Position numbers and translations under genes: made by a program
Part shown: positions 5,456 to 27,102 of the stretch, one piece after another
How the letters are laid out: the number at the start of each line of letters is the position of its first letter
How positions within the stretch are numbered: position 1 is the stretch's first letter
DNA from: a virus
Lineage: Duplodnaviria > Heunggongvirae > Uroviricota > Caudoviricetes
Length of the DNA: 64,000 bases
Virus record (IMG/VR): IMGVR_UViG_3300025122_000007
Span: 37,620 to 101,619 of that record
Strand: one strand, 5' to 3'
The notes under the pieces: model-generated
The model's database searches: none
Told to the model about the DNA's origin: nothing
The model's input: only the letters and a program-made list of their open reading frames with translations

Positions 5456-5530
5456 CAAGATCGTGATGAATCGAACACCTTGCCACAAGGTTTGGAATCT
5501 TGCGTGGATCCAGTCCACATTAGGCTACGA
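5456..5530 (-). ncRNA. degenerate tRNA-like element (pseudo-tRNA)
   Basis: T-loop TTCGATT and a 74-nt unit, but no consistent acceptor or anticodon pairing; followed by a hairpin-motif copy. Confidence 0.3.
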
Positions 5531-5612
5531 CCTCAGAAAAGCGAGAAAAAGCAACGAAAGGTTTGGTTTCATTTAATGGTTGAAGTATCTTTCGTCTGTA
5601 CTTCGCTTAGTG

Positions 5613-5690
5613 GCCACTAGAGGGATCGAACCTCACTCTGACATGTTCCTCTAACTTATCGGAACACACCTGACACCCATGCCCGGCCGT
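5613..5690 (-). ncRNA. degenerate tRNA-like element
   Basis: T-arm GAGG-TTCGATC-CCTC and an acceptor-like 3' end; no matching 5' acceptor strand. Confidence 0.3.
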
Positions 5691-5693
5691 ATA

Positions 5694-5930
5694 TCATCTC
5701 AACACTTTGAAACCCCTAAAGAACTTTCGGTCCTCTCCATACACTGGAATGGATGCTGCTGCAGTCATCTGCATTCCGATGTCAGGTTCAAAGAATGGTT
5801 TCATTGAGATGCCATTGAGTGCGATGTCATTCACCGCTTCTTTCAAGGCATCCTCATCCTTGACACCTAGAAGCACCATAAAACAGGTATCTTCCGGTGT
5901 CGTGCCCATCTTTTCCATGATTCCACCCAT
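5694..5930 (-). CDS. hypothetical protein
   Basis: ORF track entry. Confidence 0.35.
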   Translation of the reverse strand: MGGIMEKMGTTPEDTCFMVLLGVKDEDALKEAVNDIALNGISMKPFFEPDIGMQMTAAASIPVYGEDRKFFRGFKVLR

Positions 5931-6034
5931 CTCTAGGCTTGCATGGCAGGCTTGGACTGCCTGATAAGACTTATCAAGATCCTTTCTAACTAGTACGTAA
6001 ACGTAGGGGTTGCCCTAATGCATTTCTTTCTCCT

Positions 6035-6108
6035 TGGTATTCGCAGAGGGACTCGAACCCTCATCATCGGGTTTAGAATCCGCTGCTCTTCCTTTGAGCT
6101 ATGCGAAC
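6035..6108 (-). tRNA. tRNA with anticodon CUA (candidate amber suppressor); CCA encoded
   Basis: Acceptor GTTCGCA/TGCGAAT, D-stem GCTC/GAGC, T-arm GAGGG-TTCGAGT-CCCTC, 3' ACCA. Anticodon loop TTCTAAA, so the plus strand shows codon TAG. The anticodon stem is weak (GCGGA/CCCGA, 3 bp). Confidence 0.45.
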
Positions 6109-6113
6109 AGTTG

Positions 6114-6185
6114 CACAGGTACTAGGATTCGAACCTAGAATAGAAGCTTCAGAGGCTTGCGTGATGCCGTTTTCACTATACCTGT
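6114..6185 (-). tRNA. tRNA-Gln (CTG)
   Basis: Full cloverleaf; plus-strand loop ttcagag gives codon CAG. Confidence 0.7.
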
Positions 6186-6192
6186 ATCTTGA

Positions 6193-6408
6193 TCAGTTCT
6201 TACGTTTGGCTTCGTAAGCAAACTCTATGATACTACCAGCTATCTGAGTTATCAACTCATCTTTTGTCATAATATCACCTTCGATCTTTCCTAGAGATTC
6301 ACATACATGTGTAAGAAGAGGCATGGATACCGCCAAATCAACATGAGGATTCCCGTCATCATCTGTCGTGATGCTTATGTCAAATAGTGATACCGGATCG
6401 TATTTCAT
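6193..6408 (-). CDS. hypothetical protein
   Basis: ORF track entry. Confidence 0.35.
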   Translation of the reverse strand: MKYDPVSLFDISITTDDDGNPHVDLAVSMPLLTHVCESLGKIEGDIMTKDELITQIAGSIIEFAYEAKRKN

Positions 6409-6410
6409 AG

Positions 6411-6484
6411 TGTATCCTACTGGACTTGAACCAGTGGTCTCTAGCGTGTCGAGCTAACGCTTTACCAAGCTAAGCTAAGGATAT
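6411..6484 (-). tRNA. tRNA-Val (GAC)-like; C at position 33 and an A1-C72 mismatch
   Basis: T-arm ACTGG-TTCAAGT-CCAGT, D-stem GCTT/AAGC, anticodon loop TCGACAC. Confidence 0.45.
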
Positions 6485-6509
6485 GTGTGGGAGACTAGCT
6501 CCCCAAGGC

Positions 6510-24619: not shown

Positions 24620-24631
24620 TAACTTTTAAAT

Positions 24632-24706
24632 TGGTAGGGGTACTCGGATTTGAACCGAGGACTTTCACGGTGTAAACGTGACACTCTCCCGCTGAGTTAT
24701 ACCCCT
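24632..24706 (-). tRNA. tRNA-Val (TAC), CCA encoded
   Basis: Perfect acceptor AGGGGTA/TACCCCT, anticodon arm TCACG-TTTACAC-CGTGA, D-stem ACTC/GAGT. Confidence 0.85.
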
Positions 24707-24913
24707 ATAATACTATTAAGGTTTTATTACAGAGAACACAGACCTCATTGGTTTCAAAAGAGTCTGTTTCGGTATGAGGACAAGTTTTTTGAAGCTTTTC
24801 AGCTAAGTTTTGCACCTGTATTTGAAGATCATCTACAACTTTGGATGCTTTACAAAGTTGCCGTACCTTCCTATCCAATCGTTCTTTTGTGATTTTATAG
24901 GACATCAGAAGTC

Positions 24914-25174
24914 TTAATCAAGACATTCGCAGTCTTCAAGAGAATAATCACAATAGAGGCACCAGCTGTCATATTCTTCGCAATCACAGCCTATATCATT
25001 TTCGGCTCTGCCTTCACAAAGTTGAATTCCTTCTCCATGTTGCCCTTTGCAATGCTCACACCTGGTGGCGGGGCCACCATTGCAACCACATGCACTCATA
25101 TCCTTATGACAACCAGGACAAGCTCGGTTGAATGGTGTCAAGGCACCATCATTGACTACTACGATAATACTCAT
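24914..25174 (-). CDS. small Cys-rich protein
   Basis: More than 15 Cys in 86 aa. Confidence 0.35.
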   Translation of the reverse strand: MSIIVVVNDGALTPFNRACPGCHKDMSACGCNGGPATRCEHCKGQHGEGIQLCEGRAENDIGCDCEEYDSWCLYCDYSLEDCECLD

Positions 25175-25270
25175 TTGTTTCCTCCAATCGTATTTGAACC
25201 TTTTTTAGTTCTTGTGCCGTTTGATTACGGCTTGGAGGAACCAGATGACTAAACACAAATAGTCGGTTCC

Positions 25271-25774
25271 CTAACTGTTCAAGATTTCGATGGCCTCTTC
25301 TACATGTTCATCCAACAAACCTACTCTTTCTTGAGTTTGAACTACATGAGGATGATGGTCTGGATCTTTTACCCATACCTGATCGTCCAGAATGACGTAG
25401 TTCTCCACGTCATTCTCTTTCAACCAAGCTAGAATCTCCTTTCCTCGAGGCATGTACATGGAAGAACCAAATCCACCTCGAACCATAGGAGTGTAGTCGA
25501 CCACCTCTGCTTTCAATCCGATCAAGGACAGGAAGTTCGCACCTTCCTTGAAGACCGGGAAGCTTTCACGCCAGGTCGAAGACCAGATGATCTTAGCCCC
25601 TGTCGCTTCGGTGATGCGATTTACACGAGCGATCATATCGTCATTCGTCATGGATCTCCACCATCCGAACGACTCTCTTGGGTGACCAGAATCGAATGCC
25701 GCTTGCAGGCCCTCAGGACCGTTCAGGACACCATCCATGTCTAGGAACACAACCTTCATCGGCTTTCCTTCCAA
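25271..25774 (-). CDS. HAD-superfamily phosphatase (paralog B)
   Basis: FLDMDGVLN motif; similar along its whole length to the ORF at 19072-19575. Confidence 0.7.
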   Translation of the reverse strand: MEGKPMKVVFLDMDGVLNGPEGLQAAFDSGHPRESFGWWRSMTNDDMIARVNRITEATGAKIIWSSTWRESFPVFKEGANFLSLIGLKAEVVDYTPMVRGGFGSSMYMPRGKEILAWLKENDVENYVILDDQVWVKDPDHHPHVVQTQERVGLLDEHVEEAIEILNS

Positions 25775-25867
25775 GGGCCTCTACAAGCTGTCCTGGAGGC
25801 CTTCTTGCGTGCATCGCCGTGATTCCCGGAGCCCCATGAGCGTCTACGAGCCATTCGTGCGATGGGA

Positions 25868-26122
25868 TTATTTTTCTTGGGATTCTTCATTGAGTTTCAC
25901 CTCTACAATCAAATCTTCGAATGGGTCTTTAGCTAGAAACTCTTCTACCTCTTGTATCGCTTCGATATCAAAACGATCTACTTCTTCAAAATGCTCTATC
26001 TCAATTGGCAAAGGTGAAGCTGACATCTCTTCTTGATATTGTTCTTCTGCTGTCCAAAAGGCATAACAAAGTATGTAGATACCTATTTGGACAAGAATAA
26101 TAATTGTTTCTGGATCAAACAT
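25868..26122 (-). CDS. hypothetical acidic protein
   Basis: ORF track entry. Confidence 0.35.
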   Translation of the reverse strand: MFDPETIIILVQIGIYILCYAFWTAEEQYQEEMSASPLPIEIEHFEEVDRFDIEAIQEVEEFLAKDPFEDLIVEVKLNEESQEK

Positions 26123-26135
26123 TTAAGTACCCCAG

Positions 26136-26218
26136 CTGGCACAGGCGGTAGGATTCGAACCTACGATTTCAGCTCCGCTACGGTTCGACAGTTTAGAAAA
26201 CTGTGCCGGCTACGCCTG
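26136..26218 (-). ncRNA. aberrant tRNA-like element (Arg TCT anticodon arm, CCA end, no D-arm, 23-nt insertion before the T-arm)
   Basis: Acceptor GCAGGCG/CGCCTGT, T-arm GTAGG-TTCGAAT-CCTAC, anticodon arm ACAGT-TTTCTAA-ACTGT. Confidence 0.35.
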
Positions 26219-26254
26219 CTTGAGTTTTATAGTATTCGAACATACAATTAAACT

Positions 26255-26728
26255 ATGAAATGTTTAAAATGTAATTCGAAACTAAAAGGTAAATACACAA
26301 AGAAGTTTTGCAATCGTTCTTGTGCTACCTCTTATAACAACTCTCTCTTTCCCAAAAGAAAACCAGAGAATAAATGCGCAACGTGTTCATCGCTAATTAA
26401 TTCTCGAAGAAAATACTGTTCTTTAGAATGTAAACCTCAAGGTCAAGATATGACTCTCAAAGAGGCCATTTATGTTAAACATCATAAATCTTCTGCTTTT
26501 GCTCTCGTTCGTGCTCGAGCTAGAGCTTTATCCAAGAGATGGGAGATGATTTCATGTGAAGAGTGTAACTATTCAACTCATGTTGAAATTGCTCATCTCA
26601 AATCTATTTCAGAATTCTCTGAAGATACTCTTCTTTCGAAAATCAATGCTAGAGAAAATCTTCGTGCATTATGTCCAAATCATCATTGGGAGCTCGATCA
26701 CCCAAAGCAAAAAGAAATAAAGAGCTGA
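26255..26728 (+). CDS. HNH endonuclease with zinc ribbon (paralog 3)
   Basis: CLKC...CNRSCA ribbon and THVEIAH...LRALCPNHHWELD motif. Confidence 0.8.
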   Translation: MKCLKCNSKLKGKYTKKFCNRSCATSYNNSLFPKRKPENKCATCSSLINSRRKYCSLECKPQGQDMTLKEAIYVKHHKSSAFALVRARARALSKRWEMISCEECNYSTHVEIAHLKSISEFSEDTLLSKINARENLRALCPNHHWELDHPKQKEIKS

Positions 26729-27033
26729 GACTATACTCTTTAATGACCACACCTTCAACCCCGTACCTGGTTACGTCCCCGCAACCAGCTAAGGTCTTAT
26801 CCACGCCCTCTCGAACGTCTGTAATCAAAACCGCCTATTTTGAGTTCCCTGGCGACGGGAACATAAGTCATGATCTGCTTCGATGCTTCCTGTCACCCCC
26901 AAACCCGCGCAGGTCTAGGGACTCCGTTCATACATCAACCGCATCCACCTTGGGAGCTTCAACGGCCTCTGTTCCCCCGAAGAGGCAGAGGATTTGGCTT
27001 CTTTCGAACCATGACCGACAGGGTCTTTTCATT

Positions 27034-27102
27034 TAAACAACGAGGAATTGAACCTCACCTTTCATTCCGTAGATGAACGCTCTACCATAGAGCTAATTGT
27101 AT
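27034..27102 (-). tRNA. tRNA-Arg (ACG)-like, slightly degenerate
   Basis: Anticodon arm TTCAT-CTACGGA-ATGAA, D-stem GCTC/GAGC, 4-bp T-stem, one acceptor mismatch. Confidence 0.4.

Follow-up and report, generated by a model that had tools for sequence, protein, structure and literature searches.

What are the degenerate, half and rearranged tRNA-like modules that lie scattered among the tRNA genes of an uncultured phage? The question is raised by a stretch of 64,000 nucleotides (referred to as the window) from a virus of the class Caudoviricetes (positions 37,620 to 101,619 of IMG/VR record IMGVR_UViG_3300025122_000007). An initial annotation, made from the letters of positions 5456–27102, had proposed either ongoing tRNA duplication and decay or structured RNAs derived from tRNAs. 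We find that the interval is a tRNA and non-coding-RNA island with minus-strand transcription and a Ro60 (Rsr/TROVE) gene at its end, and that the majority of its seemingly broken or rearranged tRNA pieces represent Y RNA-like mimics of tRNAs and not simple decay products. All tRNAs, tRNA-like elements, Y units and the GOLLD RNA of the island are located on the minus strand of the window. Five units (i.e., Y1–Y3, Y5, and Y6) are likely to be Y RNA-like RNAs partnered with the phage Ro60 protein, with Y4 as a candidate and with the remaining elements being tRNAs, a GOLLD RNA, and minihelices.

Y RNA-like units and the phage Ro60 gene

The five units have a common stem-bulge-stem scaffold marked by the motifs CG(N)AGUACA, (U/A)UACUUC, and GCUUUUUC. 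Each consists of an outer helix, the bulge CG(N)AGUACA, an 8-bp inner helix, (U/A)UACUUC, a variable insert, the inner return strand, the pyrimidine-rich bulge GCUUUUUC, and the outer return strand, with CGNAGUACA as the bulge of the scaffold. In other words, a leader (UA..CG(N)AGUACA-GAnnnGAG-(U/A)UACUUC) and a tail (CUCUUUUC-GCUUUUUC-UCGC...) enclose the insert. The leader motif occurs five times, always on the tRNA strand, where 0.06 copies would be expected. Two helices, separated by an asymmetric bulge, form between leader and tail; pairing extends to 63 of the 69 positions, a value matched by only 3 of 120 permutations of the tails. Moreover, compensatory changes distinguish the copies (e.g., GAUUAGAG/CUUUGAUC in Y2 vs. 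GACGAAAG/CUUUCGUU in Y5).

The inserts of Y1–Y3 fold as a T-arm, an acceptor-like stem of 6–7 bp with a loop of 4–8 nt, and a D-arm, and display canonical UUCRAnU T-loops and a D-loop GG. Y1 (16963–17095) carries the T-arm GUGGG/CCCAC, the capped acceptor CCCCAC-8nt-GUGGGG, and a D-arm. In Y2 (17546–17683), identified from motifs and folds, a V hairpin and a T-arm are followed by the GAAA-capped acceptor GCUCUGC/GCAGAGU and a D-like arm, and part of this unit is read as a tRNA by Rfam (28.7 bits). Y3 (17759–17863), identified in the same way, has a T-arm, the capped acceptor UUUCUCC/GGGGAAA, and a D-arm. This order of T-arm, capped acceptor, and D-arm points to the layout of YrlA, which is defined by V/T/AS/D stem-loops together with a GNCGAAN0-1G Ro60 site, in a class of Y RNAs reported from 254 bacteria and 22 phages (PMC4201824). 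The Rfam YrlA model, run in E-value mode, matched Y1 at 16969–17083 (30.7 bits, E = 0.0004–0.006).

The tRNA-like module is absent from the two remaining units with the scaffold. Y5 (5539–5608) has no effector insert (YrlB-like) and both of its closing helices are fully paired, while Y6 (5371–5453) holds a plain hairpin insert. The GNCGAAN0-1G motif is exact in Y6 (GGCGAAG) and has a single mismatch in Y5 (AGCGAAG), and variants of the Ro60 site are seen in Y1 (ACGCAG), Y2 (AGCAG), and Y3 (ACGUAG). The candidate Y4 (17178–17270) fills the spacer between tRNA-Lys and tRNA-Tyr and lacks the conserved leader and tail; its less clean module comprises a T-arm, a long capped hairpin, and a D-like arm, is closed by CAGG/CCUG, and gave a weak YrlA match (18.6 bits). 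Chen et al. 2014 (PMC4201824) cautioned that tandem tRNAs can look like YrlA. Such mimicry was excluded here, as both acceptor strands are mutually complementary and no other tRNA half is found on either side.

These units account for several of the oddities that were initially annotated. The element in which a 3′ half precedes a 5′ half (16990–17061) is indeed present and constitutes part of Y1. The three pieces described as T-arm plus acceptor without a 5′ half were all recovered, but those at 17229–17270 (in Y4) and 17800–17832 (in Y3) are not truncated, since they continue into a loop-capped acceptor-like hairpin and a D-arm; at 18724–18772, the T-arm-like hairpin was found but no capped acceptor was recognised. 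The proposal of structured RNAs derived from tRNAs is upheld for 16990–17061 and 17800–17832, both of them parts of YrlA-type mimics whose closing stem is conserved and covaries and whose Ro60 partner gene is encoded on this strand as well, and also for 17229–17270 as part of Y4, a leaderless candidate without the closing scaffold.

The Ro60/Rsr gene, on the same strand as all Y units, enters the window with its 5′ part (positions 1–828, 276 aa; Pfam TROVE, E = 1e-15). The full protein of 575 aa starts at window position 828 and runs past the left edge; on contig L007, where it is complete (12691–14418), it shows a TROVE domain (8e-31) and a vWA_Ro60 domain. A protein with TROVE and Ro60-vWA domains is present on 14 independent contigs, and the next Ro60 outside this lineage is about 42% identical. 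The top matches in the PDB are the Ro60 structures of Thermus phage phiLo (9L5Y/9KOP, E = 1e-19), alongside Rsr of D. radiodurans.

Two observations concern the surroundings of this gene. Immediately 3′ of the Ro60 stop codon, a strong GC-rich hairpin with a U-tract is followed by a GC-rich stretch of 846 nt that has no gene calls in most strains and in which Rfam found nothing (L007:14419–15264, just outside the window). Upstream of the gene, a degenerate tRNA-like element (1227–1300; called by ARAGORN, no match in Rfam) has the anticodon loop CUCAUAC, a small 5-nt D-loop, and mismatches in its acceptor and T-stem. The 9-nt anticodon loop initially attributed to it is not needed, as a 6-bp stem with a loop of 7 nt is formed instead. 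Only 2 nt separate this element from the ATG of an open reading frame (ORF) of 106 aa that has no visible Shine-Dalgarno sequence and is located just upstream of Ro60, and tRNA-type processing might yield a near-leaderless mRNA of this ORF.

Comparison with other Ro60-encoding phages

The six contigs compared as strains of this phage were 99.8% identical, leaving too little variation for covariation analysis. Protein-anchored searches of IMG/VR with the BCS1-like and DHH proteins returned nothing, and nothing was found by Megablast against sequenced phages. A search of IMG/VR with the leader motif gave six single matches, none of them with tRNAs and about as many as chance would yield, and thus no relatives. 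Because no intermediate relatives of the lineage were available, other Ro60-encoding phage loci were compared, and the unit grammar of the window was recognised next to Ro60 on three metagenomic contigs as well as in two cultured phages.

A first such locus lies on a 183-kb contig (L016), where a Ro60 gene (40% identity) is embedded in a tRNA array with at least 23 members, together with a transfer-messenger RNA (tmRNA) and a peptide deformylase. At least five units are found there, each composed of an outer helix, CCGAA, an 8-bp helix, [AU]UACUUC, an insert, and a tail; one of them, directly after tRNA-Gln, is a YrlA match at 36 bits. On another contig (L015), the units begin straight after the Ro60 stop codon. 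The isolated Streptomyces phage EhyElimayoE, with an annotated Ro-like protein, has three tandem units of the form GGUGCGA(A/C)-N8-GGUUACUUC upstream of Ro60, the first without a tRNA mimic and the third a YrlA match at 43 bits. This array (7323–7726) is unannotated, and Rfam gave a single YrlA match in it, below the gathering score.

Caulobacter phage CcrPW (Colossusvirus, sister to CcrColossus) has about seven tandem units (GGUGGCG(U/C)AG-N8-NUACUUC...GUUCCCCC), many of them with T/AS/D modules, and the GCGUAG and GCGCAG bulges of these units beside Ro60 match those of Y3 and Y1, respectively. The CcrPW locus has the Y motif but no tRNAs. Its tandem Y array upstream of Ro60 (NC_048046, 4470–5845) is unannotated. 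In the literature, CcrColossus is named among the phages having Y RNA-like RNAs and Ro60 homologs.

In 12 curated units from four lineages, 161 of the 172 closing-helix positions are paired, with three to six pair types per position except for an invariant last G-C. Pairing of the inner helix averaged 7.2/8 for cognate strands vs. 4.4/8 for non-cognate combinations between lineages. These counts were taken from curated units, as a generic stem-bulge-stem scanner with a loosened motif was too permissive and gave many matches in coding sequences; a four-sequence MAFFT alignment of units from outside the window was ragged in the AS and D region. The shared grammar and the covariation across lineages place the units of the window with the known YrlA/YrlB-type Y RNAs of phages, and multi-copy Y arrays with and without tRNA mimics are already known in cultured phages.

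As in the YrlA/YrlB RNAs of Chen et al. 2014, CcrPW, and EhyElimayoE, the window units combine a stem-bulge-stem, a bulge reminiscent of the CGAA type, and (N)UACUUC with an optional V-T-AS-D tRNA mimic, occur as several paralogs per genome, some of them without the mimic, and share the strand of the Ro60 gene. In contrast to the comparison phages, where the units are in tandem and directly upstream of Ro60, those of the window are dispersed in a tRNA array 4.5–17 kb from it, and each is enclosed between tRNA or tRNA-like genes. The bulge in the window also has an extra GUACA, with the exact GNCGAAG in one unit only, and the Rfam score is lower (31 bits vs. 36–43). Thermus phage phiLo likewise encodes a Ro60 with Y RNA-like partners that carry a CGAA-type stem bulge. 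Passages of the phiLo paper (PMC12135203) describe Yrl1 and Yrl2 as having a 5′–3′ stem around a CGAA bulge, report experimentally demonstrated Ro60 binding, and propose recruitment of the host PNPase; they place the two Yrls directly upstream of Ro60, unlike the window units, and note no tRNA-mimic module, whereas the window units are known from sequence alone.

Placement between tRNA-shaped elements and rival explanations

Each Y unit of the window starts 1 nt past the upstream tRNA or tRNA-like gene (N73-C) and ends 4–8 nt before the next one. The resulting arrangements are Tyr, Y1, Asp; Lys-like, Y2, Ile; tRNA-like, Y3, Lys-like; Lys, Y4, Tyr; and tRNA-like, Y5, tRNA-like, Y6, Met. Four of the degenerate elements are neighbours of Y units, i.e., 5455–5534, 5610–5688, 17685–17754, and 17865–17947. 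The first, between Y5 and Y6, is a minihelix with an aberrant anticodon loop (A33) that was picked up by relaxed ARAGORN and scored 23.5 bits in Rfam, below the gathering threshold. The second, 5′ of Y5, was found by relaxed ARAGORN and has a 5-bp acceptor, a T-arm, and an 11-nt 'anticodon' loop. The element at 17865–17947 unites a perfect 7-bp acceptor, a D-arm, and a T-arm with an 11-bp rod that replaces the anticodon arm; the Lys-like element at 17685–17754 is described below.

Further tRNA-shaped elements occur elsewhere in the island. Two of them (9059–9148 and 8993–9065) have a canonical T-arm and an aberrant core. Across 8990–9068, an alternative long hairpin, in which UUGAACCUGUAU pairs with GUGCAGGUUCGA (z = -3.2), would sequester a canonical T-arm, so that this segment may, as modelled, adopt two mutually exclusive folds. 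A degenerate tRNA-like element is located at 17949–18023, and the orphan T-arm-like hairpin at 18724–18772 stands just 3′ of an ORF stop; no D-arm was recognised in the latter either, and the surrounding 210 nt showed no excess structure (z = +0.4).

From this placement, a route of expression can be proposed. The island would be transcribed as long precursors, which host RNase P and RNase Z (or 3′ trimming) would cut at the tRNA-shaped elements, thereby releasing Y RNAs of 70–140 nt with short U-rich 3′ tails. These Y RNAs could bind the phage Ro60 ring via their stem-bulge-stem and tether it to host PNPase or to tRNA-handling enzymes, in analogy with Deinococcus, Salmonella, and Thermus phage phiLo, and by the same analogy the tethered Ro60 might remodel or degrade structured RNA during infection. 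The degenerate minihelices beside the Y units would then serve as non-decoding processing handles. Processing punctuated by tRNAs is known for mitochondrial transcripts and for the MALAT1 mascRNA, and the island resembles these in having tRNA-shaped elements directly at the ends of other RNAs, an analogy by position only. A more far-reaching and tentative idea, which we would sooner doubt than accept, is that the island is a single tRNA-punctuated RNA factory in which degenerate minihelices, stripped of the anticodon domain but not of acceptor and T-arm, are kept specifically as RNase P/Z handles for the release of the Y RNAs. The latter would supply one Ro60 scaffold with interchangeable effectors (a full tRNA mimic, a hairpin, or none), and the Ro60-Y ribonucleoproteins (RNPs) would cooperate with the pool of phage tRNAs and with a GOLLD cage to which a tRNA is tethered. 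Such a factory could, for instance, survey the phage tRNAs or shield them from anticodon nucleases of the host.

A number of points weigh against the assignment of the units as Ro60-partnered Y RNAs. The exact GNCGAAG is confined to Y6, with CGCAG, AGCAG, and CGUAG variants in Y1–Y3, and the YrlA scores of Y1 (30.7 bits) and Y4 (18.6 bits) are below the RF02553 gathering threshold of 69 bits; this threshold is likewise missed by the Ro60-adjacent units that serve as calibration, those of EhyElimayoE (43 bits) and L016 (36 bits). The distance to Ro60 is about 4.5–4.8 kb for Y5/Y6 and about 16–17 kb for Y1–Y4, compared with the proximity criterion of 4 kb used by Chen et al. 2014 (PMC4201824). 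The leader could alternatively pair with itself (GAAGUA/UACUUC), making the closing-stem model one possible fold, and the covariation within this lineage comes from five paralogous copies in near-identical strains. Finally, the processing-handle role is purely what we infer, and the elements concerned were found via their kept T-arm and acceptor, which entails an ascertainment bias.

Could the odd modules instead be pseudogenes and remnants of tRNAs, produced in a fast-evolving phage tRNA array by recurrent duplication, by recombination (with homing endonucleases as a possible driver), and by neutral decay? The elements at 1227–1300, 5455–5534, 5610–5688, 9059–9148, 12282–12365, and 17949–18023 combine defects in the D or anticodon domain with Rfam scores close to or under the threshold, three HNH-like ORFs are present in the island, paralogous Lys tRNAs differ between strains by a single nucleotide in the anticodon, and the orphan T-arm at 18724–18772 lacks excess structure around it. 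Decay would not, however, give five leader/tail pairs with compensatory changes, the same grammar beside Ro60 in four other phage lineages, or capped acceptor hairpins of six to seven perfect base pairs, and different lineages retain the short-arm tRNA(CAA) and tRNA(GAG), with covariation in the D-stem. The lesions also concentrate in the D and anticodon domains while T-arms and acceptors are intact, although this is partly an effect of ascertainment. As a general account of the odd modules, decay therefore appears unlikely, and the corresponding part of the initial annotation finds no support for the Y-unit pieces, the GOLLD tRNA, or the class-I-length tRNA(CAA), which belongs to a Leu-like family in several phage lineages. 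For the elements at 1227–1300, 5455–5534, 5610–5688, 8993–9065, 9059–9148, 12282–12365, and 17949–18023, and for the orphan T-arm at 18724–18772, decay is a possible origin.

Two other explanations concern the Y units themselves. Leader and tail might be signals at the level of DNA or transcript (i.e., promoters, terminators, or endonuclease sites) that punctuate tRNA units without being parts of one RNA, given that the motifs recur at tRNA boundaries, that the tail is U-rich, and that two weak terminator-like matches lie inside Y3. Yet no sigma-70-type promoter or convincing intrinsic terminator was seen at leader or tail, both covary as paired partners across divergent phage lineages, and the motif is tied to Ro60 loci without tRNAs, as in CcrPW, which renders such signals very improbable. 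Still harder to credit is that Y1–Y3 are circularly permuted or split tRNA genes whose products are circularised or ligated into functional tRNAs, a route known from some algae and archaea. The order of T-arm, acceptor strands, and D-arm would fit, and an ATP-dependent ligase gene is encoded nearby (3534–4631), but this ligase has DNA-ligase domains and no RtcB was seen in the window. Permuted or split maturation, for which the initial annotation had suggested a search, is further contradicted by the halves and flanks, which give no anticodon arm and form instead a Y-type stem-bulge-stem common to Y5 and Y6, where no tRNA part exists. In addition, the acceptor is closed by loops of 4–8 nt with no bulge-helix-bulge motif, and the architecture equals the published YrlA design (PMC4201824). 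A Y RNA-like identity of the units remains the reading that we prefer.

The tRNA array, GOLLD RNA, and genome setting

The large tRNA array reported initially was readily confirmed. ARAGORN with default settings called 30 tRNA genes over 1227–27104 and Rfam RF00005 gave 31 matches at gathering score, 28 of them shared, for a union of 33–34; the six found by one tool start at 1227, 10544, 12282, 13407, 17685, and 26140. The T-loop consensus GGTTCRANTCC was observed 44 times vs. 9.7 expected. The anticodons represent 19 amino acids and a CUA amber suppressor, with Trp absent from both the ARAGORN and Rfam calls, and we count about 30 working tRNA genes for these amino acids, plus the suppressor.

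Starting from the left, tRNA-Met(CAU) (5290–5362; ARAGORN and Rfam, 59.7 bits) has a 1:72 mismatch and is followed by Gln(CUG) (6113–6185), Val(GAC) (6410–6484), Thr(GGU) (8101–8173), Glu(UUC) (8381–8453), and Cys(GCA) (10212–10287), all recognised by ARAGORN and Rfam, and by Ser(UGA) (10544–10625; ARAGORN only). A peptide deformylase gene (7325–7810) stands among the tRNAs of 6113–8453. ARAGORN and/or Rfam then place Gly(UCC) (12817–12891), Glu(CUC) (13407–13479), Lys(UUU) (14507–14582), His(GUG) (16047–16119, with G-1 at 16120), Asn (16131–16203), and Asp (16886–16957). The genes that follow were again found by ARAGORN and Rfam, i.e., Tyr(GUA) (17097–17177), Lys(UUU) (17271–17346), Ile(GAU) (17467–17540), Pro(UGG) (18135–18209), Ala(UGC) (18488–18562, with G3-U70), Arg(ACG) (19579–19651), Phe (19658–19732), Leu(UAG) (20797–20880), Leu(UAA) (21278–21363), Gln(UUG) (22465–22536), Thr(CGU) (22545–22617), Thr(UGU) (23177–23250), and Val(UAC) (24632–24706). 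Both the G-1 of tRNA-His and the G3-U70 pair of tRNA-Ala were as initially described, while the tRNA(CUA), Cys, Glu(CUC), the third Thr, the short-arm Leu(GAG), the GOLLD RNA, and the leader and tail motifs are additional to that description. At position 17313, the first anticodon base of the tRNA-Lys at 17271–17346 is polymorphic among strains, being UUU in the window and CUU in five of six other contigs, so that most strains have one UUU and one CUU isoacceptor from two near-identical Lys genes.

Some candidates were rejected. The long-intron 'tRNAs' returned by the intron mode of ARAGORN overlap called ORFs and were treated as spurious, and a tmRNA or permuted tmRNA at 9068–9084 and 18385–18513 was discarded, as the matches were partial and of T-arm size. 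Small hydrophobic ORFs are found between tRNA genes at 18033–18122 (minus strand, about 29 aa) and 18219–18450 (minus strand, 67–75 aa), each with a Shine-Dalgarno-like sequence.

The amber-suppressor tRNA(CUA) (6035–6108) has an encoded CCA end and is labelled 'Pyl(cta)' by ARAGORN (Rfam 61.2 bits). It displays G1-U72 and A73, and its anticodon arm (CGGA/CCCG, with an A31-C39 mismatch) is almost identical to that of the tRNA-Cys at 10212–10287. Recoding of stop codons (code 15 or code 4) in connection with a suppressor tRNA was rejected, since TAG ends ORFs at domain ends in genes of the window; for TGA, the large gain under read-through in the high-GC half was a composition artefact, and standard-code calls are dense in both halves of the window.

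The class-I-length tRNA(CAA) of the initial annotation is likewise real (7187–7261, 75 nt, Rfam 56 bits), and a second short-arm tRNA-Leu, with anticodon GAG, was detected at 22385–22460 (ARAGORN, Rfam). Both have a covarying 3-bp D-stem, the D-loop CAAUUGGCAGA, A15/U48, and A73. The same traits recur in three short tRNAs of L016 (CAA, GAG, and UAA; 13373–13448, 18363–18436, and 18439–18515) and in annotated tRNA-Leu of Vibrio phage phiKT1024, the KVP40-like Vibrio phage V09, and Rhodococcus phage Peregrin; loci of the family include L028:11658–11735, L030, and L031. Members are 74–78 nt long, with Leu anticodons (CAA/GAG/UAA/UAG), a Leu-type 3-bp D-stem, an 11-nt D-loop, and no long variable arm; a similar tRNA-Trp of a Stenotrophomonas phage differs by its 4-bp D-stem and G73. 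Judged by their sequences, these short-arm tRNAs are a conserved phage tRNA-Leu-like family lacking the long variable arm, rather than products of decay. A literature search found no paper on short-arm phage tRNA-Leu.

The Lys(UUU)-like tRNA at 17685–17754 (Rfam 42.7 bits; relaxed ARAGORN) has the T-loop CUUAAUC that was initially noted, together with the D-loop AAUAUA, so that both elbow partners are altered (G18G19 and the UUC of the T-loop are gone). This would be a coordinated elbow change and a third tRNA-Lys(UUU) scaffold in the phage, possibly, though speculatively, relevant to evasion of anticodon nucleases. Two further tRNA-like elements lack a D-arm. That at 12282–12365 (Rfam 29.2 bits) has a 7-bp acceptor, a hairpin loop CUUAUAA, a long variable region, and a T-arm; instead of the proposed 9-nt anticodon loop, it can form a 5-bp stem with this 7-nt loop. 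Its counterpart at 26140–26219 (Rfam 38.1 bits) shows a 7-bp acceptor, a canonical T-arm, a hairpin loop UUUCUAA, and a long variable region. The two are alike in having UAU or UCU at the anticodon position and a variable region of 23–28 nt.

At the upstream end of the tRNA island, the conserved domain of a GOLLD RNA was identified at 26722–27169 (RF02032, 133.9 bits, E = 1.8e-35, model positions 1–416 of 416). GOLLD RNA is reportedly due to Weinberg in 2009. The alignment includes the UCAAAAG hairpin, the pseudoknot strands, GAAAG, and GUAUAGUCUCAGC, with one internal hairpin deleted. Its score is 16 bits under the Rfam gathering threshold (150) and passes the E < 1e-5 cutoff of PMC12286853, which describes GOLLD RNAs near phage tRNA islands, sometimes with a tRNA in the linker, and a 14-mer nanocage resolved by cryo-electron microscopy. 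Here, the linker holds a tRNA-Arg(ACG)-like element with a weak AU-rich acceptor (27032–27104; 44.9 bits), another instance in which the proposal of structured RNAs held true. The 407 nt at 27170–27576, with no gene call on that strand and a fold (z = -3.0) that none of 100 shuffles equalled in stability, are probably the variable 5′ domain, which would bring the GOLLD RNA to a probable length of about 855 nt. The window GOLLD thus resembles known ones in its full-length match to the conserved domain, pseudoknot, terminal motifs, phage origin, tRNA island, and linker tRNA, and differs in scoring below the gathering threshold, in missing one internal hairpin, and in a 5′ domain deduced from non-coding character and fold z-score. 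A GOLLD RNA with a linker tRNA is a known kind of phage RNA.

Large tRNA arrays are known from jumbo or huge phages and from T4/KVP40-like phages, and the T4 tRNA cluster also has two small stable RNAs and homing endonucleases. The island resembles such arrays in its dozens of tRNAs amid small ORFs and HNH-type endonucleases and in its companion genes for peptide deformylase and, just outside the window, CCA-adding enzyme, but is unlike them in also having Ro60-linked Y RNAs and a GOLLD RNA. Its only plus-strand ORFs are three HNH-like ones, at 9029–9595 (a weak match, PHROG HNH, E = 0.006), 12943–13332 (Pfam HNH_2, 4e-06, and PHROG), and 26255–26728 (PHROG 1271 HNH, E = 3.9e-11), the last of which abuts the 3′ end of GOLLD. 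Such homing-endonuclease-like ORFs could be drivers of array rearrangement.

The island belongs to an uncultured jumbo phage with contigs reaching 185–195 kb. Among sequenced phages, the jumbo phages of Tunturiibacter, Caulobacter (CcrColossus/CcrPW), and Brevundimonas come closest to it, with an identity of about 30%. Products of the larger ORFs include a BCS1-type AAA+ ATPase, the ATP-dependent ligase, a trypsin-like protease, the peptide deformylase, a DHH phosphoesterase, an NAD synthase, a metallophosphatase, and a Band-7 protein. An identical BCS1 protein is found on 14 metagenomic contigs that extend 7.7 kb beyond the left edge of the window, where the 575-aa Ro60 protein is followed on the same strand by ClpP and then by the CCA-adding enzyme; no additional Y units or tRNAs were found in these 7.7 kb, nor did Rfam have matches in the window at 33.5–64 kb. 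The GC content steps at about position 34000, from 45% over 1–34000 to 55–60% over 34000–62000, and chimeric assembly was ruled out as the cause of this step since independent contigs span the junction. The high-GC block consists of dense same-strand ORFs without Pfam or PHROG matches, and an orphan T-arm-like hairpin (34174–34200) is located within a 469-nt gap at the GC boundary.

Taken singly, the components of this locus are of known kinds, be it the phage tRNA array, the YrlA/YrlB-type Y RNAs that accompany Ro60, or the GOLLD RNA with a tRNA in its linker; particular to the locus are the dispersal of Y units sandwiched between tRNAs and the possible tRNA-like handles. For the reading of other phage genomes, the locus means that half, permuted, or fragmentary tRNA signals in a phage array need not be pseudogenes and can instead stem from Ro60-linked Y RNAs or from GOLLD, and that the gathering scores of Rfam YrlA and GOLLD overlook these RNAs. 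The (N)UACUUC and CGNAG bulge variants across four phage lineages could in turn improve Y-RNA covariance models. Finally, one uncultured jumbo phage joins a near-complete tRNA set, a suppressor, short-arm tRNA-Leu, Y units with Ro60, a CCA-adding enzyme, and GOLLD, and thereby offers a compact natural test bed for how Ro60-Y RNPs and GOLLD relate to tRNA metabolism in infection, for whether tRNA-shaped elements punctuate the processing of phage transcripts, and for what the different effector modules of the Y RNAs recruit.

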